From the NCBI GenBank assembly GCA_041650915.1, contig JBAZKE010000001.1, forward strand, positions 251,284 to 315,283: a DNA stretch of 64,000 nt. The letters run 5' to 3'. This document shows positions 23,828 to 41,299 of the stretch, one piece after another. The first letter of the stretch is position 1. Each line of letters begins with the position of its first letter. Source of the stretch: Patescibacteria group bacterium (GTDB lineage: Bacteria > Patescibacteriota > Patescibacteriia > UBA10025 > JAHIVO01). The position numbers were made by a program, and so were the translations under genes. The notes beneath the pieces were generated by a model that worked only from the letters and a program-made list of their open reading frames with translations, did not search any database and had not been told where the DNA came from.

Positions 23828-24055
23828 ACACTACCAGTATACCGTTAGTGTCATGCTAGCACAAATTTTTTAGTGAGAAGTTCATTAGCGAGTTTGCAAC
23901 GTATATAATGTGAGTTTTTTAGTGTTCGATATAGTGGAAACGTTAAGAAATTGATTTTTCCCCCAAAGTGTGTTACAATAGTAAGGTATTAAATGTAAAA
24001 AAATAATGATTTTCGGGTTGTAAATACCCATTATTTTTTAGTATACAAGTCATTG

Positions 24056-27000: not shown

Positions 27001-30000
27001 GGTGATGCAAGAAGCGGACGGCCCGTATTTCCTGCGCATCGCGGTCAAGGACGATTCGGGAAATGTTTCAACTCCGGAAACCGCGTTTACCTACAATTAT
27101 ACCGGGGTTAATACCGCGACAGAAGCGGTGTGGGACGATCAGGCGGATTTCGAGGACGGGGAGACTGAAACGAATATCAAAACCGATGCGAACGGGGGAA
27201 CGAATATGACGCTTGATCCGATCAGCCCCGGCACGTGGATGGACTTGCCTGCGTCATTCGGCACTGCCGGCTATAACCATACCTCGTACAACGACACGTC
27301 GATCGCCTGGGACGGCGATGATACGATATATGCATTACGTTCGGTCAATTCGCAATATTTCCATAAATACACCATTTCAACAAAGACATGGGAGCAACTT
27401 GCAAATACCGGCGTGGCGGCGTACACTGGCTCGGCAATCGTGTACGTGCCTGACGGAACCACGGCTAACTGCACTGATGACGGCGGATGCGTCTTTGCCA
27501 CTATGGGCAACGGCACCGGATTCCGCAGATACGATGTCAATGCCAATGCGTGGACGGCGCTCGCTTCCGTGACGCTCTCAGTCGGCAATGGCGGCGGATT
27601 GATCTGGACGGGCGGCGACTACATCTACGCTTCCCGCGGCCAGGGCACCGTCACTATGTACCGCTACGATATTGACAGCAATGAATGGGACGATAACGCG
27701 GCGCCAGACCCTGATTACGCGTTTAATTATGGCGCGGCGTACAGTTATGTGCCAAACGGAAATTACTGCCTTGATTTGCAGGGCTGTATTTTTGCCACGC
27801 GTGGCGGCACTTCAACCCACGTGTACCGTTTTGACATACAGGGAGGTTCTTGGTCATTTCTGACCGCACTGCCGTCAGCATCGCCGCCCAAGGTGAATTA
27901 CGGCGCGACCATGCAGTATCACGATGGGTTCTTGTACTATATTGCCGGGTACTATTCGACTGATTTCCTGAAATACGACATTGCCAGCGATTTTTGGTCT
28001 GCGATGCCTGACCTGCCCACCACCCATTACTACGGATCCACGAATAATCTGGTGTACGATACTAGTTCGGACATCATGTATACGCTGCGCGGTTCGGCTG
28101 AATACAGTTTCCTGAGTTTTGACGTGGCGGAAGACGAGTGGCGCAACCCGGCAATCCCGCACGGCAGTACGACCAATGGTTTTTATTATGGCGGCGTGGC
28201 TTACGACGGGGATGACACGTTATATATTGCGCGCGGAAATGCCGGCAACATGGCTGATTTTTATAAATACACCATATCCACGAAAACCTGGCAGAATCTG
28301 CTGGACGTGCCGATGCGCATGAATACCGGATCCGATTTGATTTACGTTGACGGCAAGGTGTATGCGCTAACTGGCGCGCCGCCGTACGGCGAGGTATATA
28401 GCCGGATGTACGAATACGATCTTGAGACAGGTTTTTGGACTAGGAAAGGCGATCTGCCTGCTGCAGTCGGTGATGGCGCAAAACTGGTTTGGGACGGCAA
28501 TAATACTATTTATACTGCGCGCGGCGGCGCAACGGCAAGCTATACGGTGTATTCATATAAAATATCAGGAGCAGCGGGTGCAGGACAGTGGACGACCCAG
28601 GCAGAAAATGTGTTTGGCAATGCCACCGTATACCAGGGCGCATGTTCGGTATGGGATGGCGGCACCAAGCTCTATTTGATCCAAGGGCAGAATTTATCGA
28701 ATATCCTGTTTTGCAATCTTTCCACGGATGGCGACGGCAATGGCACGTGCGATTGGCAAGCGGATACGCTCACCAACCCCTCCGTCGGGATTCAGTACGG
28801 CAACGCCTGCGCTTTTTATGACGGTACTCCTGATGATTTAATTTTTATACCACGCGGGAATACAAATACCACAGATTTTCTTGTGTATAATGTAACGGAT
28901 GATACATGGGAGACTCGCACGCTGAATAACTTTTATTATGGCGGCCGTCTCGTGACCGGACCGGACGGAATTTTATACGGCTTCCGCGGGTATAACACCT
29001 CAACCATGGACCGGTACGTGCAGCAGACTGCAACGACCAGTTTTCAGCGTACCGGCACCTGGACATCACCAATCGTAACTGCGACGGATATATTTGATTT
29101 TGGAGGGTTCGAGGTAAACGATTCCGAAGAAGAAAACACCTCATTAACGTATGAAACGCGGACGTGTTCTGACGCCGGCTGTGCCGCTGACCAGGGAGAC
29201 GCGCACTGGTCGGACTGGGACGAGGTGTCCAACGCGCGAACGATAGAAACTACGGATTACTATACGGTAGATTCCACGCCGGCAACGTACATCCAGGTCC
29301 GCGCCACCTTCAATTCAGACCGCGTGTACACCCCAACAGTAAACGACTTTACCTTGAGCTACTATATTGACGGCACTGACCCGGACAATCCGGCCGCGCC
29401 GGTTGACGGGTACACATCGAGCGCAAAAACAACGACGATTGATAATAACGACTGGACAAACGATGCGACCCCATACTTTGGATGGACTGCGTCTGATGAT
29501 GCGGGCGGCATTGGCATTGAAGGATTCTATGTGTATTTCGGCACGGACGAGACCAAAGATCCGGTGGATGACGCGGCTGACCCGACCAACCTCGCCTATG
29601 ACAACAGCACGAACTACTATGAGGTTAATGATGATGGCACGACTGGTTCATGGAACGCGGCAACGCAGAGCAGCGATGCGATTACTGACGGCGATTACTA
29701 TTTGCGCATCAGGACCAAGGACTTAAACGGCAATGTAACTGATAGCGCAGTGGCCGCATTTACATTCCTTATTGACGAGAGCGTGCCGAATAATATCACC
29801 GACCTGCAAGTTGGGGATTATATGTCTGCGGAAGATGATTTTGATTTTACTTGGACTGCGGTGAATGATGAAGGCTCGTCAGGCATTGAACAGTACTGCT
29901 ACCATACTGGTTCATCGGCCGATACGTGTGTTGACGAGGGCACGATCTGCAGTGGTGGCACCTGCCTGGTTGAAAACGTCCCGCACTACCAGACGCGCGT

Positions 30001-32974
30001 CAATACGTTTTATGTGCGTGCGGTCGATGAAGCCCTGAATCCGGCCGCGTCATATGCTTCAACGGGGTATTTTTATACCGGCGGCCCGCCGGAACCGCCC
30101 GGAAGCGTGACGGTTGATCCGCTTGCGAGCGTGAATAACAACACGTTCACGATTTCTTGGGATTTGCCAACGACCTGCCTTGGTTCGACGCCATGTTCCG
30201 CGAGCGATATTTACCGCTATTGCTATACTATTAATGAAGAGCCGAGCTCGGAAACATGCGGTGCCAATTATAGCGGCGATGCAACTCCTTCGCCGGATGG
30301 CGGATGGACGACTGAAACTCAGACCTCAAGCCGCCTCCTGCCTGACTTTTCCGCCGCTACCCTGCAGGGCGAAAATATCGTTTATGTAGTGGCAATGGAT
30401 ATTGTGAGCAATATTGATTATTCCAATTATACGACTGCAACGTACGACTTCACTTCCACCGCGCCTGGCATGCCCGCGAGCATGGAGGCGACTGATACGT
30501 CTGACCGCACGACCAATAAGTATTCAGTCGTGCTGACGTGGGATGAGCCGGAAGATGTGGGTAGCGGCGTTGAGTCGTACAAGGTGTACCGCTGCGAAAG
30601 CGATTGCGAGAATCCGTCCACGGTGGATGACCCGCCCTCGAATTATACGAATATCGCCGAGGTGAATACGCTTGGTTATTTGGATACCAGTTTGGACAAT
30701 ACCATTACGTATTCTTACTTCGCGCGGTCGACCGGCACGGGCGGCACGATTTCCGGCAATTCCGCCGTGGCTGAAATAAAACCTGAAGGAAAATTCAAGT
30801 ACGCGCCAACTATCAGCGGCGCACCGGCAGTAACCGCGTACATCCGTTCCGCTTTGGTCGAGTGGCTCACCTTGAATGACCAGGACCAGTACGGCAACGT
30901 TATCGAACACTACGCCTCGTCATACGTGCAGTACGGAACAACGACCGCTTATGGCGAGGAAGACGGTACATCTGACCTGACGGACGAGCATTCGGTCACT
31001 CTGACAAACCTGACGCCGGATACCACGTACCACTATCGGTGCAAGTGGGTTGACCAGGACGGCAATGAAGGCTATTCATCTGATTATACGTTCACGACCA
31101 AGGGAGCGCCGTCAGCGCCGATTAACCTCGCGGTCGATCCGGAATCGAACACTGTGAATAGCTTTGGTTTTTCCTGGGACGCGCCGACTGATGAAGGCGT
31201 GACGGTCGCCGGGTATTACTATTCCATCAATAATATCCCAAACGAAACGAATACTACAAATATCGAGGAAACGAGTATCGAGGCATTCGATGCAGCGACC
31301 CAGCAGGGAACGAACACATTCTACGTTGTCGCGATCGATGACGGCGGCAATATCAACTACGCAAACTACGCATCAGTTGATTTCGAGGCGTATACAGAGC
31401 CGCCCAGCGAGCCCCAAGCCGTTACCATCACTGATTCGTCTGACCGCGATGCAAAGCGGTATTCGATAACTCTGACTTGGGACCCGCCCGAGGGATACAC
31501 AGCGGACGATGAAATATACTATACGATATATCGTCGGGAGGCAGAGGCAGACACTGAAGCTGCTGGCGCCGGCATTGCAAAAGCCGCGGCGGATGACCTG
31601 GAAGAGATTGCGACGATCACCTCGACCGGGTATCTTGATACCGGCCTGGACAGCTCAACGGAATATTTCTACCAGGTGACGGCTCGTGACAAGGCGCAGG
31701 CAACCTCGGATCCGACTGACATTGTTTCCGAAGTGCCGGAAGGGCGCTTTACCCAGCCGCCTGCGATCACCGAGAATCCCGTTGCAGTTTCCGATTCGTT
31801 TGCGGCCACGATTACCTGGCGGACGGAACGTGTCGCATCCTCGTTTGTCGATTTCGGCCTCACCAAGACGGACTGGACCGAGGAGCAGGGGACGGCTGAC
31901 ATGGTTGAGGAGCATTCGGTGCGGATTACCGGCCTGAAACCGGAAACGACCTACTTTTACCAGGTAAAGAGCATTGACGTTGATGAAAACGAGGCATACT
32001 CAAACGTATACTCGTTTGTCACGCTTGAAGCGCCGCGGGTGCTTGAGCTCGACGTGACTGATATCAAGCTGTTTGACGCTATCGTCACATGGGATACCAA
32101 TAAAGAAACGACTGCGGTGATCGAATACGGTACGACCACTGACTACGGGATGACGTATACCGATGTCACTCTTTCGTATGCGCTGACGCACACAGTCAAG
32201 CTTGATCATCTGGATGACAGCCAGACGTACCACCTGCGGATCAACGGCCAGGACCGTTCCGGCAATCCGATACAGTCGGATGACTATTCGTTTACCACTT
32301 TGACATTCCCCGAAGTATCCGATATATCATACGTAAACAAATCGGAGGGCCAGACGGAAATTTTCTGGAAAACGAACGTACCGACCACTTCCGAGGTGGA
32401 GTACTATAGCGACCAGATTGCCCCCAAGACCCAAGGCAATACGGCGCTTGTTACGGAACACGTGATTCTGTTGTACGGGCTGGAAGACGCGACTACGTAC
32501 CAGTTCAAAGTGCGCGGCTCGGATGAGTTCGGCTATGAGGCCGTGTCCGATGAGCGCGAGTTCACGACGCTCGAGGACACCACGCCTCCGGAAATATACG
32601 GCGTGCAGTCCGAGTCAAATACGATCGGTTCAGGCGACGCGTCAAAAATCCAGATTGTCATTTCGTGGAAGACGAATGAGCCGACCACGTCGCAAGCTGA
32701 TTTCGGCGTTGGTTTGGGCGGTTCTGACTATTCGGACCAGACTGAAGAAAACGCTGAGCTGGTAATGGACCATCTGGTGGTTATTTCCGACCTTGCGCCC
32801 GCAAAGACGTACCATTTCCGGGTCGTATCAACTGACAAGGCGGGGAACCAGACGAAATCAGGATCGCATACGGTGTTGACTTCACGGAAGCGCGAGTCAT
32901 TCCTGCAGCTTATCATTTCCAATCTGGAAACGACATTTTCGTGGCTCGGCAATGTCGGTTCCCTGGCAAAGTAG
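24056..32974 (+). CDS. giant (~2970 aa) membrane-anchored surface protein with multiple Kelch-like beta-propeller blades and many FN3-like domains
   Basis: Basic cytoplasmic N-terminus (K/R-rich), one TM (LIIVALVVTATAGLFYFYY), then long arrays of Kelch-like repeats (YGGS...W..Y, FRFDIAEKIWYH, WRYDAANGYWDS, YRYNIGANTWTAL...). Interspersed and C-terminal FN3-like domains (YHYRCKWVDQDGNEGYSSDYTFTT, YFYQVKSIDVDENEAYSNVYSFVT, YHLRINGQDRSGNPIQSDDYSFTT, YHFRVVSTDKAGNQTKS). Start set at the first ATG after the TTG given in the track. Confidence 0.75.
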   Translation: MQADQMPARQKKKKITGNIPVRQNRKKTIATQKKRSACRVSAVSSRSGAAKQNQKNRTRTAVGFYGRFFAFLNLVTGFIRAYRPLIIVALVVTATAGLFYFYYQSTLAAAAQYVIDTQAEWEAGEYYPNTVDTKTTADEISIKPGGGGTWDGDTTGFLTDTAGYEYWSYDGPSYGADLTTDGTYIYQILGNRRPYLFRYNPETNTWKQLANAPTSFYYGGSITYDAHTKSIFAINGGEQNETEQATKHMFQYDIASDTWSKSTDAPDTFGLGSSITSNGAGKLFAVRGRNTDELWEYDIDDETWDQNYSQLPTPYYVYQTNGQPLEFVNEQYSDGEGDHCTQGCLFTLYGGGNRNFFRFDIAEKIWYHTTPVDLTIPAALGGVNYGSSFAYDSDRGNLFLLHGNTQYPATTTMGDNFSTYDVSAQDWDDAPEDTPDAPGWVTYGGAMVYLDDYVYAMQGYNGSRPGLWRYDAANGYWDSISTPDVANGSNPALGQGTQGSGGENGHLVYVPSGTYCADAGGCLYSFRGGNSTNYWRYNVDAKTWTTDLSVENFGALQQGSSFCYNGANRIYALHGESTLTFYQYEITGEGDDDEDTWQVLTSMPADHSDADDYPDASANASYGSSLACMGTTVYALKGGTSASGANHFFSYNGAAWTDLEPLPQRAYLGAKLVTVPYDAGHTEWCADASGCVFAFAGNMRGDWYRYNIGANTWTALTGDNLPTATYYTASLAYDGQGNIYATDGNYDTNMWKYEINGDDGTWYQIADLQARVGYNNALAYDSDNNVMYFQQGLGTTTISRFTPTPDDYIASATWISEPLDLGYVNSFSTLGYLVTEPDDSAVTFQTRTSTDKVSWSDWENLGLLDAIESDAGQYIQVKAVLAASTDGGDTPTITSITVNYDKDGTAPDNPDVDGYADSTEATEITSGAGNLYHYTNPYFEWDAATDDSGIAGYYVRWTDDELDDPDESEDYFQTGTSYEVNTVMQEADGPYFLRIAVKDDSGNVSTPETAFTYNYTGVNTATEAVWDDQADFEDGETETNIKTDANGGTNMTLDPISPGTWMDLPASFGTAGYNHTSYNDTSIAWDGDDTIYALRSVNSQYFHKYTISTKTWEQLANTGVAAYTGSAIVYVPDGTTANCTDDGGCVFATMGNGTGFRRYDVNANAWTALASVTLSVGNGGGLIWTGGDYIYASRGQGTVTMYRYDIDSNEWDDNAAPDPDYAFNYGAAYSYVPNGNYCLDLQGCIFATRGGTSTHVYRFDIQGGSWSFLTALPSASPPKVNYGATMQYHDGFLYYIAGYYSTDFLKYDIASDFWSAMPDLPTTHYYGSTNNLVYDTSSDIMYTLRGSAEYSFLSFDVAEDEWRNPAIPHGSTTNGFYYGGVAYDGDDTLYIARGNAGNMADFYKYTISTKTWQNLLDVPMRMNTGSDLIYVDGKVYALTGAPPYGEVYSRMYEYDLETGFWTRKGDLPAAVGDGAKLVWDGNNTIYTARGGATASYTVYSYKISGAAGAGQWTTQAENVFGNATVYQGACSVWDGGTKLYLIQGQNLSNILFCNLSTDGDGNGTCDWQADTLTNPSVGIQYGNACAFYDGTPDDLIFIPRGNTNTTDFLVYNVTDDTWETRTLNNFYYGGRLVTGPDGILYGFRGYNTSTMDRYVQQTATTSFQRTGTWTSPIVTATDIFDFGGFEVNDSEEENTSLTYETRTCSDAGCAADQGDAHWSDWDEVSNARTIETTDYYTVDSTPATYIQVRATFNSDRVYTPTVNDFTLSYYIDGTDPDNPAAPVDGYTSSAKTTTIDNNDWTNDATPYFGWTASDDAGGIGIEGFYVYFGTDETKDPVDDAADPTNLAYDNSTNYYEVNDDGTTGSWNAATQSSDAITDGDYYLRIRTKDLNGNVTDSAVAAFTFLIDESVPNNITDLQVGDYMSAEDDFDFTWTAVNDEGSSGIEQYCYHTGSSADTCVDEGTICSGGTCLVENVPHYQTRVNTFYVRAVDEALNPAASYASTGYFYTGGPPEPPGSVTVDPLASVNNNTFTISWDLPTTCLGSTPCSASDIYRYCYTINEEPSSETCGANYSGDATPSPDGGWTTETQTSSRLLPDFSAATLQGENIVYVVAMDIVSNIDYSNYTTATYDFTSTAPGMPASMEATDTSDRTTNKYSVVLTWDEPEDVGSGVESYKVYRCESDCENPSTVDDPPSNYTNIAEVNTLGYLDTSLDNTITYSYFARSTGTGGTISGNSAVAEIKPEGKFKYAPTISGAPAVTAYIRSALVEWLTLNDQDQYGNVIEHYASSYVQYGTTTAYGEEDGTSDLTDEHSVTLTNLTPDTTYHYRCKWVDQDGNEGYSSDYTFTTKGAPSAPINLAVDPESNTVNSFGFSWDAPTDEGVTVAGYYYSINNIPNETNTTNIEETSIEAFDAATQQGTNTFYVVAIDDGGNINYANYASVDFEAYTEPPSEPQAVTITDSSDRDAKRYSITLTWDPPEGYTADDEIYYTIYRREAEADTEAAGAGIAKAAADDLEEIATITSTGYLDTGLDSSTEYFYQVTARDKAQATSDPTDIVSEVPEGRFTQPPAITENPVAVSDSFAATITWRTERVASSFVDFGLTKTDWTEEQGTADMVEEHSVRITGLKPETTYFYQVKSIDVDENEAYSNVYSFVTLEAPRVLELDVTDIKLFDAIVTWDTNKETTAVIEYGTTTDYGMTYTDVTLSYALTHTVKLDHLDDSQTYHLRINGQDRSGNPIQSDDYSFTTLTFPEVSDISYVNKSEGQTEIFWKTNVPTTSEVEYYSDQIAPKTQGNTALVTEHVILLYGLEDATTYQFKVRGSDEFGYEAVSDEREFTTLEDTTPPEIYGVQSESNTIGSGDASKIQIVISWKTNEPTTSQADFGVGLGGSDYSDQTEENAELVMDHLVVISDLAPAKTYHFRVVSTDKAGNQTKSGSHTVLTSRKRESFLQLIISNLETTFSWLGNVGSLAK

Positions 32975-33171: not shown

Positions 33172-34050
33172 ATGTTTGGCAGAAAAAAGAAAAAAACTGA
33201 AGCAGTATCCGCCGCCCGGAATTCAGGGGCAGGTATGGCGGCGCCAGCAAAAAATACAGATGGAATCCAGCAGCAGAAAGCTCCTGATGCAACTTCGTCA
33301 GGCATTGGAAAACCTGGGGAGATAAAAACGGCTGAGCTGCCCGAAGAACAAAAAAAGCCGGTTATCCTGCTGGAGCGTGTCAATAAAAGTTTTGACCTGG
33401 GAAAAACGGTCGTCCAAATTCTGAAAGACATCAACGTGCAGATATTTCCGCGCGAGTTTATCGTTATCCTCGGGCCGTCCGGAAGCGGCAAATCAACGCT
33501 CTTAAACACGCTTCTTGGGCTCGAACCCCCGTCAAGCGGACGTGTTGTCATGAATAATATCGATATTACTCGGAAGAAGCAGGACAAAATAGCAAAAATC
33601 AGGTACGGATTGTTTGGCATCGTATTCCAGCGGCCAGAGTGGGTACGGTCATTAAGCGTCGTGCAAAATGTCGCATTACCGCTCTCAATTAACGGGACAG
33701 AAAAAGATAAACGGATGCGTATCGCGTGGGAAAAGTTGAAGCTGATCGGCATGGATACTCATGGCAAGTACTTCCCGACGGAATTATCTGGCGGCCAGCA
33801 ACAGAAGGTGACTTTGGCGCGTGCATTGGTAAATGATCCGCAGGTTATCATTGCCGACGAGCCGACTGGCAATCTAGACAGCGCTTCAGCGGATCGCGTT
33901 ATGGATCTGTTTAAAAACTTGAATGAGAGGTTCCATAAAACCATTATCATGGTTACCCACAATATCGATTACGTGCGGTATGCGTCCCGGACCATTTATA
34001 TCCGTGACGGAAAAGTCATCGAGGGAAGCGAGCAGTTTTTATCGGGATAA
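33172..34050 (+). CDS. ABC transporter ATP-binding protein, MacB/LolD/FtsE-like, with a ~65-aa low-complexity N-terminal extension
   Basis: Walker A GPSGSGKSTLLN, signature LSGGQQQKVTLARAL, Walker B IIADEPTGNLD, H-loop VTHN. Confidence 0.85.
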   Translation: MFGRKKKKTEAVSAARNSGAGMAAPAKNTDGIQQQKAPDATSSGIGKPGEIKTAELPEEQKKPVILLERVNKSFDLGKTVVQILKDINVQIFPREFIVILGPSGSGKSTLLNTLLGLEPPSSGRVVMNNIDITRKKQDKIAKIRYGLFGIVFQRPEWVRSLSVVQNVALPLSINGTEKDKRMRIAWEKLKLIGMDTHGKYFPTELSGGQQQKVTLARALVNDPQVIIADEPTGNLDSASADRVMDLFKNLNERFHKTIIMVTHNIDYVRYASRTIYIRDGKVIEGSEQFLSG

Positions 34051-34065
34051 GAAACGACCGGCAAT

Positions 34066-35313
34066 ATGAAGATAGGGTTTACCGTCTTTTTATCAGCGAC
34101 GAATTTACGGCGCAGGAAGCTGAGGAGTTTTTTGACGATCGGCGGCATGGCAATCGGCATTGCCCTCGTAGTATTCCTCGTGTCGCTCGGTTTCGGGCTG
34201 CAGCGGATGATTGTCAGCCAGATCGCGAATGTCGAGGCGCTCACCATTCTTGACGTGTCAAAAGGCGAGTCAACGCTTCTTGCATTGGACAAGGATACGG
34301 TTGATTCGTTCAAAGATTTGGACAATGTGGATAACGTGAGCCCGTCACTCTCGCTCTCCGGCCAGATTACGCATGCCGAGTCAGTCACCGATGTGGCGAT
34401 TTATGGCATTGAGCCCCAGTTTCTATCCATGGAGGGGATCAAAGTAAATTATGGAGCAGAATTTTCAAATGCGACAGCCCAAGAAATTATCGTAACGTCA
34501 ACTGCCCTGAATCTGATCGGGCTTGGTGCGCCCGAAGAATCTGTGGGAGCTGAATTGCTCCTGAAGATGCTTGTTCCACAGAAGATTGAGGGCACTGAAG
34601 AAGAGGAATTGGTGGCAAAAGAAGTAGCGGTTACAATCAGCGGAGTAATCATAGAGGATGATGAGTTAACCCTCGCGTATGCGCCGTTGGAGTTTTTAAC
34701 TTCGCTTGGCTTTACGCCCAATTACAGCGCGGCAAAGGTCAAGGTGGATGATAAAGATGCTGATTATGACGTCGCAAAGGTAAAAGTAACGGACGAGTCA
34801 AAGCTGCCTGAGGTCCGCGCACAGATTGAGGCTATGGGGTACCAGGTTGATTCCGTCGCGGATACGGTCGGACAGATTGACCAGATTTTCGTCATTTTTG
34901 AAATCGTAGTTGCCGGGTTTGGCGCGATCGCATTGCTGGTTGCCGCTATCGGTTCGTTAAATACATTGACCGTATCTCTCTTGGAACGGACGCGTGAGAT
35001 CGGCCTCATGAAGACCCTTGGCGCGACCTCGGGAGACATCCTGCGCTTATTTTTAGTAGAGTCAGTTCTCATCGGCGTGACCGGAGGCATCGCCGGCATT
35101 TTATTGGGCATTGGGACTGGCAAGTTGGCCAATACCGGCATTAATTTCCTCGCTAGCAGGCTCGGCGGGGAGTCAGTTAATATTTTTAGTACGCCGGCAA
35201 TTTTTATCGCGATTATTTTAGCAATTATTTTAATTGTAAGCGTCATAACCGGCCTGTATCCTGCACGCCGTGCAGGCAGGATCAATGCCCTTGACGCATT
35301 GCGATACGAATAA
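34066..35313 (+). CDS. ABC transporter permease, FtsX/MacB-type, with a periplasmic domain
   Basis: N-terminal TM, large extracytoplasmic domain, C-terminal FtsX-like 3-TM bundle with LLERTREIGLMKTLGATSGDI. Confidence 0.8.
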   Translation: MKIGFTVFLSATNLRRRKLRSFLTIGGMAIGIALVVFLVSLGFGLQRMIVSQIANVEALTILDVSKGESTLLALDKDTVDSFKDLDNVDNVSPSLSLSGQITHAESVTDVAIYGIEPQFLSMEGIKVNYGAEFSNATAQEIIVTSTALNLIGLGAPEESVGAELLLKMLVPQKIEGTEEEELVAKEVAVTISGVIIEDDELTLAYAPLEFLTSLGFTPNYSAAKVKVDDKDADYDVAKVKVTDESKLPEVRAQIEAMGYQVDSVADTVGQIDQIFVIFEIVVAGFGAIALLVAAIGSLNTLTVSLLERTREIGLMKTLGATSGDILRLFLVESVLIGVTGGIAGILLGIGTGKLANTGINFLASRLGGESVNIFSTPAIFIAIILAIILIVSVITGLYPARRAGRINALDALRYE

Positions 35314-35322
35314 CTAACGCAT

Positions 35323-35997
35323 ATGCCGCCAAAAAGTTCACAGACATTATTTGCCCAGAAAAAACGGCGGGTCATCGGGGAGATGATCCGAAAGGCGGAA
35401 TTGAAGAACAAGAACGCCTGGGTTTCGATTCACCGCTCTTCAAAAGAAGACATGATTACGTATGAGAGCAAAGGTTTTGTCGTTTCGATCAATGGGAGCG
35501 GGACGCTTGCCATGGACCATGCCCAGTGCAAAGAAGCGGGGCTGTTGTCCGCATACGTCGTTGGTCACGGCGGCATCGTGATCAATGGCGGCAGGTCGTC
35601 CGGGATCATAGCGGCGTCGTCACATGCGGCGGGGCCGCATAAAATCGGGATCGTTTTTCCCGAGATCGAAAAGGAGGCGGATGATGCGGGATCCAAGGCG
35701 CTCGTCAATTCGCCGCAACCCAGGAATGAACTTTTAAGCACGTGCGCTCCGATCATCGTGATCTTCCGCGGCGGGCTCGGGACGCTGATGACGCTCCTGC
35801 GGTCCATCGTACATATCAAGAACAGGCCGTATCATCCTGACCAGCTGCCCCAGATGGTTTTTATCAGCAATTACTGGATCGGGCTTCTGACGACCCTAAT
35901 GAACATGGGTACGCTTCCCCGCGAGTTTATCGTCGCTTTGCATTTTTTTGATAGTGCACAGGATATTATCAACAAAATTCCTTCGCAGGAAGGATAA
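35323..35997 (+). CDS. SLOG-superfamily Rossmann protein (LOG/TIGR00730 or TIGR00725-like, DprA/Smf-related fold)
   Basis: IIVIFRGGLGTLMTLLRSIV resembles the LOG PGGxGTxxE motif. Glycine-rich YVVGHGGIVINGGRSSGIIAA N-terminal nucleotide-binding-like segment. Assignment by motif only. Confidence 0.45.
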   Translation: MPPKSSQTLFAQKKRRVIGEMIRKAELKNKNAWVSIHRSSKEDMITYESKGFVVSINGSGTLAMDHAQCKEAGLLSAYVVGHGGIVINGGRSSGIIAASSHAAGPHKIGIVFPEIEKEADDAGSKALVNSPQPRNELLSTCAPIIVIFRGGLGTLMTLLRSIVHIKNRPYHPDQLPQMVFISNYWIGLLTTLMNMGTLPREFIVALHFFDSAQDIINKIPSQEG

Positions 35998-36009
35998 CAT
36001 GCCACTAGT

Positions 36010-36480
36010 ATGCCAATGAGCGAGAGCAAGAAAATAATCATAATAATCGTTTCTTCGGTTGTCGGTTTAGGCATTATCATCGCCGGGGTAGGATTTTTTA
36101 TCCTTTCAAACAGCGAGCCGAATGACAATGGGTCCAATGAGGTGATTCCGCCAGCGAACACGGCGTCAAGCAACACCAATAGCATCGAAAATGTGAATAA
36201 CGCGCCGGCCATCGCGACAAACAGCGAAATAAGCGTTGAGGGCACTGTATTTATAAAAGGGTATTCGACTCCGAGCGAATCGTATGGCGTACTGACGACT
36301 GACGGGAATGAGATCGGCCTTGGGAAATATGATTCCATGAAAGAGCAGTTTCGGCCGTATATCGGGGATAAGGTAGCGGTTACGTTCAGCAATGTATGCA
36401 GAAGCACCAATGCGGACTGCTGCAAGACAGTTTGCTTCTATTGTGGTACAGTAAAATCGTGGGAACCGCTTGATGAATAG
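36010..36480 (+). CDS. small membrane-anchored protein with a Cys-rich C-terminus, unknown function
   Basis: TM KIIIIIVSSVVGLGIIIAGVGFFIL, S/N/T-rich linker, C-terminus ...CRSTNADCCKTVCFYCG. Confidence 0.4.
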   Translation: MPMSESKKIIIIIVSSVVGLGIIIAGVGFFILSNSEPNDNGSNEVIPPANTASSNTNSIENVNNAPAIATNSEISVEGTVFIKGYSTPSESYGVLTTDGNEIGLGKYDSMKEQFRPYIGDKVAVTFSNVCRSTNADCCKTVCFYCGTVKSWEPLDE

Positions 36481-36557
36481 GGGCAGGGAGGAAACTGCCT
36501 GCAGGATGCCCGGAGAAGCGGTGTTACTAAGCATTGAGAGGGGATACCAGCATACCG

Positions 36558-36941
36558 ATGCCCGAACAGAAAAAGATACTTATCGTCGAGGATGAACAGG
36601 CGATTCGCCAGGCACTGCGCAAATCGCTGAGTGCAACGGAGGGCATCGCCATCTATGAGGCAGAAAACGGTGAAAAAGCGCTTGAGATGATTGCCACAAG
36701 CGCGCCTGATTTGATTTTACTTGACGTCATCATGCCGAAGATGCACGGGATTGACATGTTGAAGACATTGCGCACCGGCCAGCAGCATCGGGACATACCG
36801 GTCATCCTGCTGACCAATTACGCGGATGACCCCAAAGTTATCGAAGCGGTCAAGAATGGCTTGTGCGAGCTGATGGATAAAACGAAGTGCAGACTCGATG
36901 ATGTTGTAGTCAGGATAAAACAAAAACTGGGGGTCGCATAA
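36558..36941 (+). CDS. stand-alone response-regulator receiver domain protein (CheY-like), paralog 1
   Basis: KILIVEDEQAIRQALRKSL...APDLILLDVIMPKMHGIDML (acidic pocket plus phospho-acceptor Asp). No output domain. Start moved to MPEQKKILIV. Confidence 0.8.
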   Translation: MPEQKKILIVEDEQAIRQALRKSLSATEGIAIYEAENGEKALEMIATSAPDLILLDVIMPKMHGIDMLKTLRTGQQHRDIPVILLTNYADDPKVIEAVKNGLCELMDKTKCRLDDVVVRIKQKLGVA

Positions 36942-36990
36942 CATCGACCTAAGTAAGAGTACTTACAATTGTTAATGATTCCATTATTGT

Positions 36991-37218
36991 ATGGACAAGC
37001 AGGGACAACAGCCGACCGAGGCGCAGAAAAATCTGATTTCCACCGTTTCGCATAAGTTAAAAGGCCCATTGACCACTATTAACCTCTATACTGAAGCGTT
37101 GCTGTCGGGAAGCGTCGGTAATCTAAGCGATGAACAGAGGCAGTATGTCCAGGAGGTGCATGATGCAAGTAAAAAAATGGTTGTGTATGTGAAAGACCTG
37201 AAGAATATTTTTAATTAG
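36991..37218 (+). CDS. orphan HisKA/DHp-domain fragment (75 aa) with no HATPase_c domain
   Basis: H-box LISTVSHKLKGPLTTINLYTEALL fits the HisKA pattern SHELKTPLT. The protein ends 40 aa later. No kinase ATP-binding domain anywhere in the cluster. Confidence 0.55.
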   Translation: MDKQGQQPTEAQKNLISTVSHKLKGPLTTINLYTEALLSGSVGNLSDEQRQYVQEVHDASKKMVVYVKDLKNIFN

Positions 37219-37251
37219 ATTCATTGCTGGATGATTGATTGAATAAACTCT

Positions 37252-37629
37252 ATGGTCGGACAAAAGAAAATACTTATCGTTGAGGACGACCAGTCAGTAC
37301 GGGTTGTGCTGGGAAATGAATTCCGGAGGATGGGGTACCAGATCATTGAAGCGGAAAACGGCGAAGCGGCAGTTGCGTTAGCACTTGCCGAGCATCCGAA
37401 TCTGATTCTGCTGGATGTCATCATGCCGAAGATGCACGGCATGGACATGCTCCGCAAGCTGCAGGAAAACGAGTGGGGCAAGAGCGTGCCGGTCGTTTTG
37501 TTGACGAATTTTTTTGATGACCCGCGCGTTATGGAAGCGGTGAAAGAAGGCCGGTGCGAGCTCCTCAGCAAATCTGAGGCAAAGCTGGAGGATATCGTGA
37601 ATAAGGTGCAGGAAAAAATTGGGGAATAA
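37252..37629 (+). CDS. stand-alone response-regulator receiver domain protein, paralog 2
   Basis: KILIVEDDQSVRVVLGNEFRRMGYQIIEAENGEAAVALALAEHPNLILLDVIMPKMHGMDMLRKLQ. About 55% identical to paralog 1. Confidence 0.8.
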   Translation: MVGQKKILIVEDDQSVRVVLGNEFRRMGYQIIEAENGEAAVALALAEHPNLILLDVIMPKMHGMDMLRKLQENEWGKSVPVVLLTNFFDDPRVMEAVKEGRCELLSKSEAKLEDIVNKVQEKIGE

Positions 37630-37653
37630 CAACGGCTGGCTGTCTATAGCCAT

Positions 37654-38007
37654 ATGCTGAAGGAAAAAAAGATATTGATTGTTGAGGACGACCCGATGCT
37701 ATTGCACCTTTTAGCAAATGGTTTTCGGAAGGCCGGGTATACTGTCTTTGAGGCGGTAAACGGGCACCAGGGCATTGAAACCGCATCACAAGAAAAACCA
37801 TCCATCGTCGTATTGGACATAATCATGCCGAAAGTCGACGGGGTGACGGTGTACAAGGCTCTTCGGGCATCCGGAGCCGTAATTGTCATCTGGACAAACC
37901 TTAGCCAGAAGGAAGTAGAGGCAGCAATCGGCGAATCCGGCATAGATTATCATGCAAAAGCGGAATGTTCGCTCGAGCAACTTATATCGCATATCAGGGA
38001 AATATAA
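37654..38007 (+). CDS. stand-alone response-regulator receiver domain protein, paralog 3
   Basis: KKILIVEDDPMLLHLLANGFRKAGYTVFEAVNGHQGIETASQEKPSIVVLDIIMPKVDGVTVYKAL. Confidence 0.75.
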   Translation: MLKEKKILIVEDDPMLLHLLANGFRKAGYTVFEAVNGHQGIETASQEKPSIVVLDIIMPKVDGVTVYKALRASGAVIVIWTNLSQKEVEAAIGESGIDYHAKAECSLEQLISHIREI

Positions 38008-38132
38008 AAAAAGATCAATATCACTATTTATTCATGCTTAAATCATTTGGTTTAAGTATTTTTCAGCTTTACAAATTGCAAAAAAAGTGTTAAAATTAGC
38101 ACACGCGCTAAGCCATTGAACATGCACGGTAC

Positions 38133-38528
38133 ATGTCTGACAATGTTTTAATCGCAACGCTCAAATATATTGCCATAGAGATCCTGTGGGATATTGTGTA
38201 CTTTCCGATCTGGTGGTATTCGAAAGGCCTCGTACGGATCGGGCGGTACTGTCTCGAGAGCGCTGAGTTCCACGTCTCGAGGCGCCTTGCGCTCGGAGTG
38301 TGGCTGAGGAGCATGTTCAAGCCGATGTACGGCGATTATACGAAAGAGGGCAGAATCATCAGCTTTTTCATGCGTGTCGTCGTACTCGTCTGGAAGCTCA
38401 TTGCGACGGTACTGTGGATGTGCGTGCTCGCACTCATCTTTTTTTGCTGGATTTTATTGCCATTCATCATCGTGTACTACATACTGTACCAGGTGTTTGG
38501 TGTGCCTTTTATTCCCTTCAGCAGGTAG
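38133..38528 (+). CDS. small multi-TM membrane protein, unknown function
   Basis: Hydrophobic, W/Y/F-rich (IEILWDIVYFPIWWYSKGL...LIFFCWILLPFIIVYYILYQVF). No family recognised. Confidence 0.4.
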   Translation: MSDNVLIATLKYIAIEILWDIVYFPIWWYSKGLVRIGRYCLESAEFHVSRRLALGVWLRSMFKPMYGDYTKEGRIISFFMRVVVLVWKLIATVLWMCVLALIFFCWILLPFIIVYYILYQVFGVPFIPFSR

Positions 38529-38533
38529 GTTGT

Positions 38534-41299
38534 ATGGAGACAGAAACAGGAAAATCTTTTGTACTGCTCACCTGCCCCTTGTGCGGCGGTACGAGCGTAA
38601 CGAACGAGGGCACGTGCAGCCGCTGCCGGGAGCAGGGTGTTTTTGCGTGGCATGAGGGAGATATCCTGCACTGGAGCAAGAAGATAGATACACTTCACAT
38701 TTTTGAGGAGGAGATTGAACGTGCGGTGAAGGCGCTCGTAAACGGCTTCCTCGTCTTCGTCGGTGTCGTCGGACTCATCGCCCTCTTCATTATGATGATC
38801 CGCACCGCAGGCTGGACTGACCACTTCTGGGAGGTATTCAGGGAACGCAACAGTCTCATGGCGATTTTTTCTATAACGCTCATTGCCGATTTGTACGCGT
38901 ACTACCGGATCCAGCGGGAATCGCTCATGGAGCGTACGGTAAAGGTAAAGCGGTTTGATCCGCTCCTTACGGAGGAGGAGCCGCCCGCGCTTTTTGACCA
39001 GGTCAGCTCGAATCCGGGCAAGGGGATGATCGACGTATCAGTGACCTTCACTGAGGACGCGACGCAGTCTGTTGAACGCGCATGGCAGCTCGCCCAGAAG
39101 TTAAAGCATGCAGAAGCTACGCCGCTCCACAGCTTTGCGACCGTCCTTTCGTACCCGCAGGCGAGGATTATCCTCGCGCGGCTTGGCGTCGATGGAAAGG
39201 CGCTCGTCGAGAAGATATCGCGGAGCCTCTATAAGCTGCCGAAGAAAGACCGCGGAGACACGCGGCTCTCCGGGAGCTTCCGGTCCATGTTGCTGTCCGC
39301 GTACGTCGAGGCGTACGAGGCGCGGCAGGAGAGGGTTGAGGCGCAGCACATGCTCGTCGCCGCGGTAAAGACCGACCCGACGGTGCGCGATATCCTGTAC
39401 GACATGGAGATTGAGCTTGATGAGGTCATCAACGTTGTCGAGTGGATCAATATTCAGCACCGGATCGCGGAACAGCGCCGCCGATGGCGGAGCAAGGCCG
39501 CCTACAAGTCGAAGGGCGTGATGAACAAGTCGATGACCTCCCAGGCAACGCCGCTGCTCGACAGGTTCAGCCATGATTTGACCTCGCTCGCCCGGCAAGG
39601 GGTGCTCGCGCCGTGCATCGGCAGGGACAGCGAGCTCGAACAGACGCTCCGGATCATCGAAGGCGGCAAGAACATCATACTCACCGGCCATCCCGGGGTC
39701 GGCAAGACGAGTGTCGTTGAGGGAATCGCGGCGCTTATGGCATCCGAGGAAGTCCCGGCTGTGATGCAGGATATGAGGTTTGTGAGCCTGTCGGTAGCGT
39801 CGCTCGTCGGTTCCGCGGGGCGCCAGGGCGAGCTCGAGGGAGTGCTGCTCCAGCTGATCAACGAAATCGTCCGGTCAGGTAATATTGTACTCTTCATCGA
39901 CAACATACAGAATATGGTCGGCGTCTCTACGCAGGGCGCAGAGAACCTCGACATTTCGGATATACTTGCAAACGCGCTGTCAAAGCGGCTTTTCTACTGC
40001 ATTGCAACGACGACGCCGCTCGATTTCCGCAGGTATATCGAGCCATCAAGTTCGCTGACTTCGGTTTTCCAGCGGGTCAATGTCAGCGAGCCGGACCGCA
40101 ACGGAACGATCAGAATCCTCGAGGGGAAGGCAAACTCGGTCGAGGCGAAGAACCAGGTATTCTTTTCGTATGATTCCATCGAACGCGCCGTCATCCTGAG
40201 CGAGCGGTACATCCACGAACGCTTCCAGCCGGAGAAGGCGATCTCGATTCTCGACGAGGTCGGCGTTTACGTGCGCCGCAAGAAGGGCGCCAACTCAATC
40301 GTGACCGGAGAGGATGTCGCGGAAATCGTTTCGCATAAGACGAACGTGCCGGTGACAAAAATTACCGAGAAGGAAACAGAGAAGCTGCTTCAGCTCGAGG
40401 AGCGGATCCACCAGCGCATGGTTAACCAGGACGAAGCGGTCAAGGCCGTGTCGACCGCACTCCGGCGTGCGCGTGCGGAGCTGCGCGATATCGGGCGTCC
40501 GATCGTCAACCTGCTTTTCCTCGGGCCGACCGGCGTCGGCAAAACGGAGCTCGCCAAGACCGTCGCTGAGACGTACTTCGGATCGGAGGATACCATGGTC
40601 AGGCTCGATATGTCCGAGTACCAGGAAAAGTCCTCAATCAGCCGCATGATCGGCTCGCCGCAGGGAGTCGGGGGCAGCGGGGAAGGCGGGTACCTCACAG
40701 AGGCGATCCGCACGCAGCCGTTCTCGCTGCTGCTGCTCGATGAAATGGAGAAAGCTCATCCGGATATCCTCAACCTCTTCCTGCAGGTGATGGACGATGG
40801 CCGCCTGACGGATACGCTCGGCCGTACGATTGACTTCACGAACGTGATTTTGATCGCGACGTCGAACGCCGGTACGCCGATTATCCAAAAGCGGATCAGG
40901 GAGAATGTCCCAATCGAAAAAATAAAAGACGAGCTCATCAACGAAGAGCTCAAGCAGTACTACCGTCCCGAGTTCCTCAACCGTTTCGACAACATCGTCG
41001 TGTTCACGCCGCTCTCATTCGAGCATATCCTGAAGATCGTTGATCTTATGCTCGGTAATGTGCGGAAGCGGCTCGCCGTGAAGGGCATCCAGCTCGAGGC
41101 GACGAAGGAAGCGAAAGAAGAGCTCGCACGGGAAGGGTATGACCCGGTGTTTGGCGCACGGCCATTGCGCCGCGCGATCCAGGAGCGGGTTGATAACGCC
41201 CTCGCGAATTACCTGCTGCAGGGCAAGATCGGCAGGCGTGACGTCGCCGTGCTCGAAAAAGGCGGCAATATTTCAGTCCGTTCGGCGCCGCCGATTTAG
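38534..41299 (+). CDS. Clp/Hsp100-family double-AAA+ ATPase (ClpA/ClpC-like, no long M-domain) with an N-terminal C4 zinc ribbon and two TM helices
   Basis: N-terminus CPLCGG...CSRCREQG, then TMs LVNGFLVFVGVVGLIALFIMMI and LMAIFSITLIADLYAYY, then a Clp_N-like repeat region. NBD1 Walker A GHPGVGKTSVVEGIA, NBD2 Walker A LFLGPTGVGKTELAKT, Walker B LLLLDEMEKAHPDILNLFLQVMDDGRLTD. The start is the ATG at 38534; the track start at 38300 is an extension. Confidence 0.85.
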   Translation: METETGKSFVLLTCPLCGGTSVTNEGTCSRCREQGVFAWHEGDILHWSKKIDTLHIFEEEIERAVKALVNGFLVFVGVVGLIALFIMMIRTAGWTDHFWEVFRERNSLMAIFSITLIADLYAYYRIQRESLMERTVKVKRFDPLLTEEEPPALFDQVSSNPGKGMIDVSVTFTEDATQSVERAWQLAQKLKHAEATPLHSFATVLSYPQARIILARLGVDGKALVEKISRSLYKLPKKDRGDTRLSGSFRSMLLSAYVEAYEARQERVEAQHMLVAAVKTDPTVRDILYDMEIELDEVINVVEWINIQHRIAEQRRRWRSKAAYKSKGVMNKSMTSQATPLLDRFSHDLTSLARQGVLAPCIGRDSELEQTLRIIEGGKNIILTGHPGVGKTSVVEGIAALMASEEVPAVMQDMRFVSLSVASLVGSAGRQGELEGVLLQLINEIVRSGNIVLFIDNIQNMVGVSTQGAENLDISDILANALSKRLFYCIATTTPLDFRRYIEPSSSLTSVFQRVNVSEPDRNGTIRILEGKANSVEAKNQVFFSYDSIERAVILSERYIHERFQPEKAISILDEVGVYVRRKKGANSIVTGEDVAEIVSHKTNVPVTKITEKETEKLLQLEERIHQRMVNQDEAVKAVSTALRRARAELRDIGRPIVNLLFLGPTGVGKTELAKTVAETYFGSEDTMVRLDMSEYQEKSSISRMIGSPQGVGGSGEGGYLTEAIRTQPFSLLLLDEMEKAHPDILNLFLQVMDDGRLTDTLGRTIDFTNVILIATSNAGTPIIQKRIRENVPIEKIKDELINEELKQYYRPEFLNRFDNIVVFTPLSFEHILKIVDLMLGNVRKRLAVKGIQLEATKEAKEELAREGYDPVFGARPLRRAIQERVDNALANYLLQGKIGRRDVAVLEKGGNISVRSAPPI

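Follow-up and report, generated by a model that had tools for sequence, protein, structure and literature searches.

A stand-alone HisKA hairpin encoded among single-domain receivers in a Patescibacteria genome: a candidate minimal phosphotransfer module

The array and its stand-alone HisKA hairpin

The DNA analyzed here, a stretch of 64,000 nucleotides of the 679,916-bp contig JBAZKE010000001.1 (hereafter the window), comes from the metagenome-assembled genome of a tiny-genome bacterium of the Patescibacteria, and it carries four adjacent plus strand genes that code for three single-domain receivers (REC) and one isolated HisKA hairpin, which we call mini-DHp. In order, these genes are REC1, mini-DHp, REC2 and REC3 (NCBI MFA5134374.1-MFA5134377.1). 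REC1, the REC-A protein, is a 127-aa (amino acid) single-domain receiver encoded at 36558..36941 (+; PF00072, 88.3 bits, E 5e-25). It is followed by mini-DHp, a 75-aa stand-alone hairpin without sensor or catalytic ATP-binding (CA) domain, at 36991..37218 (+; PF00512, 46.3 bits, E 4.5e-12), by REC2, the REC-B protein, a 125-aa single-domain receiver at 37252..37629 (+; PF00072, 81.5 bits), and by REC3, the REC-C protein, a 117-aa single-domain receiver of the conventional type at 37654..38007 (+; PF00072, 67.5 bits). The Pfam cut-offs were 30.2 bits for PF00072 and 26.9 bits for the HisKA family PF00512. Open reading frames (ORFs) and Pfam thus agree with the order REC, HisKA-only, REC, REC that an earlier note, made from the sequence alone, had given for these positions. 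The identical locus, with the same gene calls, was found in an independent public assembly (Logan SRR8542065).

Mini-DHp belongs to the HisKA/DHp family by profile, fold and conserved His. The hidden Markov model score (46.3 against 26.9 bits) backs the HisKA assignment of the earlier note, and the H-box that had been noticed there, S20-H21-K-L-K-G-P-L-T28, lies at 37048..37074 (+), with the His21 codon at 37051-37053. The AlphaFold2 model of the protein is a helical hairpin (helices 10-39 and 47-73; mean predicted confidence, pLDDT, 86) whose closest folds in the PDB are DHp domains (RetS, GacS, ERS1 and ZraS; 1.1-1.4 Å), while the PDB matches by sequence are DHp domains of the WalK/VicK/HK853 type. 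HATPase_c (PF02518) was absent from the Pfam scan of the 75-aa ORF, and for want of a CA domain mini-DHp does not qualify as a histidine kinase; it also departs from the sensor histidine kinases in having Lys and Gly, instead of an acidic residue and Thr/Asn, at the first and fourth positions after the His (H+1 and H+4). Since neither the family members nor the window hold a CA domain, mini-DHp cannot autophosphorylate. Nor is it an HPt protein, because the fold is different and there is no profile match: PF01627 gave none for the window protein at E <= 1, and matched one of 19 family members at a noise-level E of 0.09. Spo0B/ChpT-type profiles gave no significant match, HisKA is the only significant Pfam family for mini-DHp, and the protein is not of the Spo0B/ChpT type because it lacks a CA-like domain and ends after the hairpin, at 75 aa.

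Mini-DHp is one member of a family of short proteins. All eight close homologs are HisKA-only proteins of 68-83 aa, and in a profile search of 1.84 billion representatives, proteins of 63-80 aa ranked first and full-length kinases next. A scan of species-representative genomes provided three further stand-alone members, all from Patescibacteria, and a metagenome scan added five loci with one new lineage, L034 (lineages carry L numbers throughout). The stand-alone family spans 63-83 aa, no member has a CA domain and 19 of 19 match PF00512. Among the close members 24 columns are invariant, and the ratio of nonsynonymous to synonymous substitution (dN/dS) was ~0.09 in the two pairs that allow an estimate of dS, synonymous sites being saturated in the remaining pairs (nonsynonymous differences, pN, 0.15-0.37). 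These values point to strong purifying selection on the family.

A non-functional kinase remnant or an annotation artefact would account for a protein that is short, has no catalytic domain and has no obvious Shine-Dalgarno sequence upstream. This explanation is effectively refuted, and we give it almost no credence, because a 63-83-aa ORF is kept in at least 12 lineages with the 24 invariant columns of the close members, the low dN/dS and an identical locus in independent assemblies. Mini-DHp is not the 5' remnant of a disrupted kinase, an outcome that the earlier note had considered, because its closest relatives are all stand-alone proteins of 63-83 aa; likewise, the uniformly short close homologs together with purifying selection ruled out a truncated or broken kinase. 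In addition, the mini-DHp stop codon (37216-37218) is followed by REC2 after 33 bp, which leaves no room for a frameshifted CA domain.

Residue patterns in the hairpin and in its receivers

The family derives from the DHp of a PAS-HisKA-HATPase_c kinase lineage that is very common in Patescibacteria (7,148 matches) and with whose DHp mini-DHp shares 39-45% identity; the H-box has shifted from H-Q-L-R-T-P to H-K-L-K-G-P. Among the stand-alone members tabulated (n=19, sequences that are not phylogenetically independent) the His is invariant (19/19; 20/20 including L034) and H+3 is Lys in all 19, while H+4 is Gly in 13, Ser in three, Thr in two and Gln in one (L034 adds an Ala), and H+1 is Lys in 12, Glu in three, Gln in two, Ser in one and Leu in one. 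Of the 147 DHp domains of the nearest full-length proteins, by comparison, 136 carry Gln at H+1, 131 Arg at H+3 and 137 Thr at H+4. All but two of the 20 members (17 of the 19 tabulated, plus L034) thus have Gly, Ser, Ala or Gln where the Thr/Asn of H+4 would stand. Further differences lie on the receiver-docking face of alpha1, where H+11 is Leu in 19/19 stand-alone proteins versus Trp in 135/143 kinase DHp domains, and H+15 is Ala in 18/19 versus Met in 99/143. At the end of alpha2, the attachment site of the CA linker, conservation is gone.

Some related proteins stand apart from this pattern. The canonical H-E-L-K-T-P box survives in the basal members L018 and P0031. P0016, a profile-search match from outside the window, has 258 aa and joins a mini-like DHp (V-H-Q-L-L-G-P-L-T, with Gly at H+4) to a CA domain without any sensor; it may be an evolutionary intermediate between the PAS kinases and the stand-alone DHp. 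P0012, also from outside the window, is a His-less poly-DHp of 556 aa with a Gly/Ala-rich, hydrophobic N-terminus, after which a DHp-like unit is repeated six times in tandem, with Phe (S-F-K-L-R-T...) where the phospho-acceptor His would be.

The altered positions have been dissected in other systems. Willett and Kirby found that, in HisKA kinases, an acidic H+1 is required for kinase activity only and Thr/Asn at H+4 for phosphatase activity only, and phosphatase-deficient H+4 mutants still pass phosphate to the regulator (PMC3510030). Among HPt sequences ~87% have Gly and ~10% have Ser at H+4, and the H+3 Lys (Ypd1 K67) contacts the receiver, lining the channel to its Asp (PMC6341664). Set beside these data, the mini-DHp family has lost the phosphatase determinant and has gained an HPt-like H-x-x-K-G on a HisKA scaffold.

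The same positions bear on whether mini-DHp could be a dedicated receiver phosphatase or phosphate sink, in which the DHp dimer would speed the hydrolysis of REC-B~P and REC-A~P and drain the pathway. A HisKA DHp can be a phosphatase by itself, as described for the EnvZ DHp acting on OmpR~P (Zhu et al. 2000, as cited in PMC3510030), the same idea has been raised for archaeal 'HisKA, no HATPase' proteins (PMC5847659), and the basal L018 and P0031 retain H-E-L-K-T-P. However, the Thr/Asn that this activity requires at H+4 (PMC3510030) is gone in all but two of the 20 members, which disfavors the phosphate sink that the earlier note had offered as its alternative, and we regard such a role as unlikely.

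Another possibility is that the hairpin acts as a decoy or inhibitor, which would heterodimerise with the DHp of a PAS kinase or sequester unphosphorylated REC-B, in both cases weakening the signal without any chemistry at His21. In this regard, the single best structural match to the mini-DHp model is the RetS-GacS DHp hetero-complex 7n0e (PMC8498467), a regulatory DHp-DHp contact without phosphotransfer; mini-DHp is clearly of PAS-kinase descent, and PhyT also sequesters its regulator (PMC5898713). RetS is, however, a large hybrid kinase, and a decoy role leaves unexplained why His21, Lys24 and Pro26, needless for a pure decoy, are essentially invariant in the family. Furthermore, the gene is linked to receivers rather than to kinases, with a nearby kinase in one lineage only, and fixed differences from the kinase DHp run along both helices (e.g. 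the Leu in place of Trp at H+11). We consider a decoy distinctly improbable.

The three receivers of the window all keep the acidic pair, the phospho-acceptor Asp, the Thr and the Lys. The Asp codons lie at 36723-36725 (D56 of REC1), 37414-37416 (D55 of REC2) and 37816-37818 (D55 of REC3), and none of the proteins, at 117-127 aa, has an output domain; the missing output domains had been read correctly in the earlier note, and its refuting case of receivers without the phospho-acceptor Asp does not apply. Its description of three paralogous tandem receivers holds in part: REC1 and REC2 are paralogs (51% identity), but the three are not recent tandem duplicates, since they fall into three different orthogroups and REC3 is 29-35% identical to the other two. 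The AlphaFold2 model of REC2 (pLDDT 92.9) has the canonical (beta-alpha)5 topology, with RR468, Spo0F and DivK as its closest folds; D55 ends beta3, T85 ends beta4, and beta5 (103-106) is followed by K107. In this model L104 occupies the aromatic switch position of Y-T coupling, three residues ahead of the Lys (K-3). REC1 also has a Leu there (GLCELMDK), and REC3 keeps the aromatic Tyr (GIDYHAK).

We surveyed the switch position in the 118 nearest single-domain receivers. All 16 REC-B orthologs were non-aromatic at K-3 (L, V, I or C) and A-like sequences had L or I, whereas 85 of 86 more distant receiver relatives had Tyr or Phe. The aromatic residue is also kept in REC-C, in REC-D (a fourth orthogroup, described below), in the kinase-coupled REC of L003 and in the RECs beside canonical kinases in L014, L016 and L017. 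Only the REC-A and REC-B orthogroups have thus lost the aromatic switch, and the loss coincides with linkage to mini-DHp. Such a loss fits receivers that would hold or pass phosphate instead of changing shape for output, and little or no allosteric change upon activation has been reported for receivers in intermediate positions, for example Spo0F and the Rec domain of CckA (PMC9981736).

Three other features of the receivers were recorded. A conserved Cys stands two residues ahead of the substituted switch position in REC-A and in most REC-B orthologs (G-[RL]-C-E-[LI]-[LM]-x-K), and this beta5 Cys could be a redox-sensitive or metal-binding site. A compensatory change between H+4 of the DHp and the residue after the conserved Thr (T+1) of the receiver, a contact seen in HPt-REC complexes, was considered and rejected: T+1 is Asn in nearly all receivers examined, also in RECs beside canonical kinases with Thr at H+4, the sole exception among the rows inspected being an Ala in L003_Rb. 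In receivers generally, T+1 is usually Ala or Gly. Finally, a Pro follows the conserved Lys in none of the receivers examined; a Lys-Pro cis-peptide has been described as a hallmark of the receiver fold (PMC9981736).

Gene neighbourhood and candidate phosphodonors

Across the about 14 lineages surveyed, REC-B is the constant partner of mini-DHp. It lies directly 3' of mini-DHp in the window, L002, L003, L006, L010, L013, L018, L027 and L034, that is, in nine of the 11 lineages with visible downstream sequence, and the two genes overlap by 4 bp in L010 and L034. The exceptions are L012, where a 195-aa ORF of no assigned function separates the two genes, and L030, where a NUDIX gene takes the place of REC-B and little further sequence is visible. 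REC-A is directly 5' in five lineages (the window, L003, L010, L013 and L032), and an A-like REC lies further downstream in L018. REC3 belongs to orthogroup C, whose orthologs in L002 and L006 (64% identity) are located just ahead of the gene for a 131-aa membrane protein, and the fourth orthogroup, D, is present in L002 and L003 and absent from the window. The earlier note had proposed to check the conservation of the four-gene array; the pair of mini-DHp and REC-B is conserved, often with REC-A ahead, but the array of four is not the core. Members are few and come only from related Patescibacteria; this conserved gene order therefore partly reflects shared ancestry and not independent evidence of function. 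In L018 a 399-aa dCache_1 + HAMP protein without DHp or CA (L018:10568-11767) overlaps the REC-B stop and precedes the A-like REC, so that a sensor without a transmitter is encoded beside a transmitter hairpin without a sensor; the mini-DHp of this lineage is one of the two with H-E-L-K-T-P.

We searched the window for a kinase or other phosphodonor. With a full Patescibacteria kinase as tblastn query, mini-DHp was the sole match in the 64 kb; local hidden Markov models of REC, DHp, CA and PAS found nothing beyond the array; and Pfam scans of ~40 of the larger window ORFs, which code for housekeeping and surface proteins, returned no HATPase_c, Hpt or CheA. These searches bear out the earlier note, which had seen no complete kinase, Hpt or CheA in the window. 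Such arrays can nevertheless be wired to a real kinase, because the array of L003 (GCA_028711455.1) holds a complete one: its order is REC-A, mini-DHp, REC-B, a unique REC, a kinase, REC-D and a C-like REC, and the kinase is an 867-aa PAS x3-HisKA-HATPase_c protein whose gene overlaps that of the unique REC. Elsewhere in the window, at 6158-7300 (-), a 380-aa ORF has a weak, partial match to the acetate kinase family (PF00871, 26.9 bits, cut-off 22); should this match be genuine, the gene product could be a source of acetyl phosphate, a kinase-independent donor for the receivers.

These data also bear on the idea of a kinase in two pieces, where His21, and from there REC-B, would be phosphorylated by a CA domain encoded elsewhere or by that of a PAS kinase acting in trans or within a heterodimer. 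According to work of Park, Saha and Inouye in 1998, domain A of EnvZ was reportedly phosphorylated in trans by an isolated CA domain. The pair of mini-DHp and REC-B resembles a kinase/regulator gene pair minus sensor and CA, mini-DHp shares 39-45% identity with the DHp of the common PAS-kinase lineage, P0016, whose mini-like DHp has Gly at H+4, joins DHp and CA without a sensor, and the L018 cluster contains the transmitter-less dCache-HAMP sensor. Against this stand the failure to find a CA domain in the 64-kb window, or within 10 kb in most relatives, and the loss of alpha2-end conservation and altered H-box where a CA domain and its linker normally act. Additionally, H+1 is Lys and not the acidic or polar residue used for autophosphorylation (PMC3510030). 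A two-piece kinase seems to us unlikely.

Upstream of the array lies a block of plus strand genes (33172..36480) that code for an ABC ATPase (33172-34050), a MacB/FtsX permease (34066-35313), a LOG/SLOG-like Rossmann protein (35323-35997) and a 156-aa single-transmembrane, Cys-rich protein (36010-36480). The block is packed with gaps of 9-77 bp up to REC1 and a consensus scan found no promoter-like site ahead of REC1, so it is probably co-transcribed with the array; we treat it as context rather than as a proven component. The earlier note had assigned 35323-36480 to a LOG/SLOG-like protein and small Cys-rich membrane proteins, and both kinds are there, but the LOG-like gene takes up 35323-35997 and a single gene, at 36010-36480, is Cys-rich. 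The ABC/FtsX pair, the LOG/SLOG-like protein and a single-transmembrane protein of 150-190 aa recur upstream in seven lineages, and the LOG and small membrane protein genes lie directly upstream of the module in the window, L003, L012, L013, L018, L027 and L029. The LOG/SLOG-like protein is divergent (PF03641, 30.7 bits; LDcluster4, 24.5 bits) and has the motif R-G-G-L-G-T-L-M-T in place of the LOG P-G-G-x-G-T-x-x-E, and the Cys residues of the 156-aa protein are concentrated at its C-terminus. Immediately upstream of the ABC/FtsX genes, at 24053-32974, the window encodes a predicted surface protein of 2,973 aa with Kelch/beta-propeller, fn3 and purple-acid-phosphatase-N-like repeats, which is syntenic in L001 and L004.

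Downstream, a 131-aa membrane protein without Pfam match (38133-38528, +) and a 921-aa Clp-family double-AAA+ protein (38534-41299, +; Pfam Clp_N/AAA/AAA_2/ClpB_D2-small) are encoded, and their link to the array is uncertain. Between REC3 and this pair stands a promoter-like site with an upstream TG (TTTACA-17-TAAAAT, 38068..38096, +), which is a consensus match only (10/12). The pair follows the REC array in L002, L003, L006 and L018, and was not seen in the visible downstream sequence of L010, L012, L013, L027 and L030, which is short in L013, L027 and L030. The association with the LOG and small membrane proteins is thus broader than that with Clp. In place of the REC-C/membrane/Clp block, L012 (12165-13845) and L030 (6222-7037) have NUDIX hydrolase and serine hydroxymethyltransferase genes. 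Where the Clp-like protein occurs (the window, L002, L003, L006 and L018) it is always preceded by the conserved 131-aa membrane protein; ahead of Clp_N it has a CxxC...CxxC ribbon, at the N-terminus, and a hydrophobic segment, and by eye no clear loop for binding ClpP is seen in its D2, nor much space for a middle domain of the ClpB type. Functional coupling of the array to the Clp-like unfoldase or to a type IV secretion system pilin was examined and set aside, as nothing beyond synteny within one subclade was found. Control of the neighboring unfoldase or pilus genes, as suggested in the earlier note, is therefore a weak proposal, given the promoter-like site between them and the five lineages without visible Clp downstream.

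Proposed phosphotransfer by a bare DHp

The reading that we favor, with a probability of about 45%, is that mini-DHp and its receivers form a minimal Asp-His-Asp phosphotransfer module in which the hairpin would be non-catalytic and would act in a Spo0F-Spo0B-like manner. It is the best supported reading because the H-box is HPt-like, the phosphatase residue is lost and the flanking RECs are switch-less. As supports for such a relay we count the conserved family, the invariant His, the retuned H-box, the coupling to RECs, the loss of the switch, the fixed differences on the alpha1 docking face with the lost conservation at the alpha2 end, the L003 kinase and the structural neighbors. The earlier note had envisaged a minimal phosphorelay with a hub analogous to Spo0B/Hpt, and this part of its proposal fares best, although the L003 array indicates that such relays are not kinase-free in principle.

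From the domain identity, fold, family conservation, gene linkage and residue patterns computed here we infer dimerisation, phosphorylation of His21, direction of flow and output as follows. Mini-DHp would presumably be a homodimeric four-helix bundle whose His21 is charged by the aspartyl-phosphate of one single-domain receiver and in turn phosphorylates another; REC-B would be the constant partner and REC-A a frequent second one. Phosphate could enter through a conventional PAS histidine kinase, of the sort that one relative encodes within its array, or be donated by a small molecule, e.g. acetyl phosphate. The switch-less REC-A and REC-B would serve as transfer or storage intermediates, and conventional RECs such as REC3 might carry the output through protein-protein contact.

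Such a scheme has its closest counterpart in the Spo0F-Spo0B-Spo0A relay of Bacillus, where phosphate passes from a single-domain REC to a His on a kinase-inactive, dimeric DHp-type four-helix bundle and on to a second REC. Spo0B differs from mini-DHp in its C-terminal CA-like alpha/beta domain, its own Pfam family and its H-box, and Spo0A has a DNA-binding output, whereas the RECs of the window are all single-domain. ChpT of Caulobacter and PhyT of Sphingomonas are likewise derived from kinases, have lost catalysis and shuttle phosphate between RECs (PMC3433190, PMC5898713), and in the relay SdrG-PhyT-PhyR the donor SdrG is a single-domain REC, as are the receivers of the array (PMC3433190, PMC5898713). 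Both keep a degenerate CA domain, however, and PhyT has membrane and sensor parts as well, whereas mini-DHp is a hairpin only, with Lys and Gly at H+3 and H+4. HPt proteins (Ypd1, AHPs, the ArcB HPt; PF01627) are small non-catalytic His carriers between RECs with an H-x-x-K-G core, but they are monomeric four-helix bundles of other ancestry, while mini-DHp has only the two helices of a HisKA hairpin and would have to form a dimer; the H-x-x-K-G common to both would be convergent.

That a bare DHp can be functional follows from the activity of isolated EnvZ domain A, a fragment of ~67 residues that, as cited in PMC3510030 (Zhu et al. 2000), folds, dimerises, transfers to OmpR and dephosphorylates it. 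This is a laboratory fragment with a canonical H-E-L-R-T-P box, whereas mini-DHp is a natural, conserved gene with an altered one. A natural parallel is provided by the archaeal 'HisKA, no HATPase' or 'possible incomplete histidine kinase' proteins (P2CS; Galperin et al. 2018, PMC5847659), His-bearing HisKA proteins without CA that are uncharacterised and have been proposed to be phospho-acceptors, phosphotransferases or phosphatases (PMC5847659). In contrast to mini-DHp, which is bacterial, sensor-less and paired with a specialised REC, these are archaeal and multi-domain, with PAS/GAF. Our searches of the literature on stand-alone DHp or HisKA-only proteins and on Patescibacteria two-component systems turned up neither a natural family of DHp-only proteins nor any mention of the HPt-like H-box or the switch-less receiver partners seen here, and the archaeal 'HisKA, no HATPase' note (PMC5847659) is the nearest published statement.

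Several observations weigh against a phosphotransfer module of this kind. Spo0B, ChpT and PhyT, the kinase-derived precedents, keep a CA-like domain and do not have Gly at H+4, and the HPt-like motif is a resemblance of motifs and not evidence of homology, suggestive rather than diagnostic of transfer. The H-E-L-K-T-P box of the basal L018 and P0031 means that the ancestral activity may have been REC dephosphorylation. The second relay partner is not always local: a single REC stands beside mini-DHp in the minimal loci L027 and L034 (a short contig), and no REC adjoins it in the short visible flank of L030. Moreover, the best 120 matches to a concatenated query included no DHp-REC fusion. Among the best 120 of 7,148 matches to the DHp+CA core of the L003 kinase none lay on the contig of the window, but the source protein of the query itself was missing from them too, so this count carries little weight.

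The module could also be a self-contained phosphoryl buffer or relay, with an HPt-type site that arose convergently on a bare DHp, able to run without a dedicated kinase. Its two switch-less receivers would be charged from acetyl phosphate or by whichever PAS kinase is present. We think this rather unlikely; if true, single-domain effectors downstream, perhaps with the conserved LOG/SLOG-like neighbor or the membrane-anchored Clp-like unfoldase among them, would be linked to the metabolic state of a host-dependent bacterium with a minimal genome.

Two unrelated scaffolds are known to carry out His phosphotransfer from receiver to receiver: monomeric HPt proteins and kinase-derived dimers with a dead catalytic domain (Spo0B, ChpT, PhyT). 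Should mini-DHp act in phosphotransfer, a natural DHp-only protein of ~70 residues would be the minimal form of the kinase-derived scaffold, with its motif shifted toward HPt. The array would then represent a stripped-down and apparently undescribed variant of known phosphorelay parts, an inferential result that might moderately surprise a specialist in two-component systems. It would also be a natural experiment on the residues that separate kinase, phosphatase and pure transfer activities, and a clean one, because the changes at H+1, H+3 and H+4 map onto positions dissected by mutagenesis, and it would provide a compact part for synthetic phosphorelays. Because its components are all small soluble proteins, the hypothesis is testable in vitro without cultivation. 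For the signaling of Patescibacteria and the candidate phyla radiation (CPR), whose regulatory biology is almost unexplored, the module would offer a concrete, testable element.

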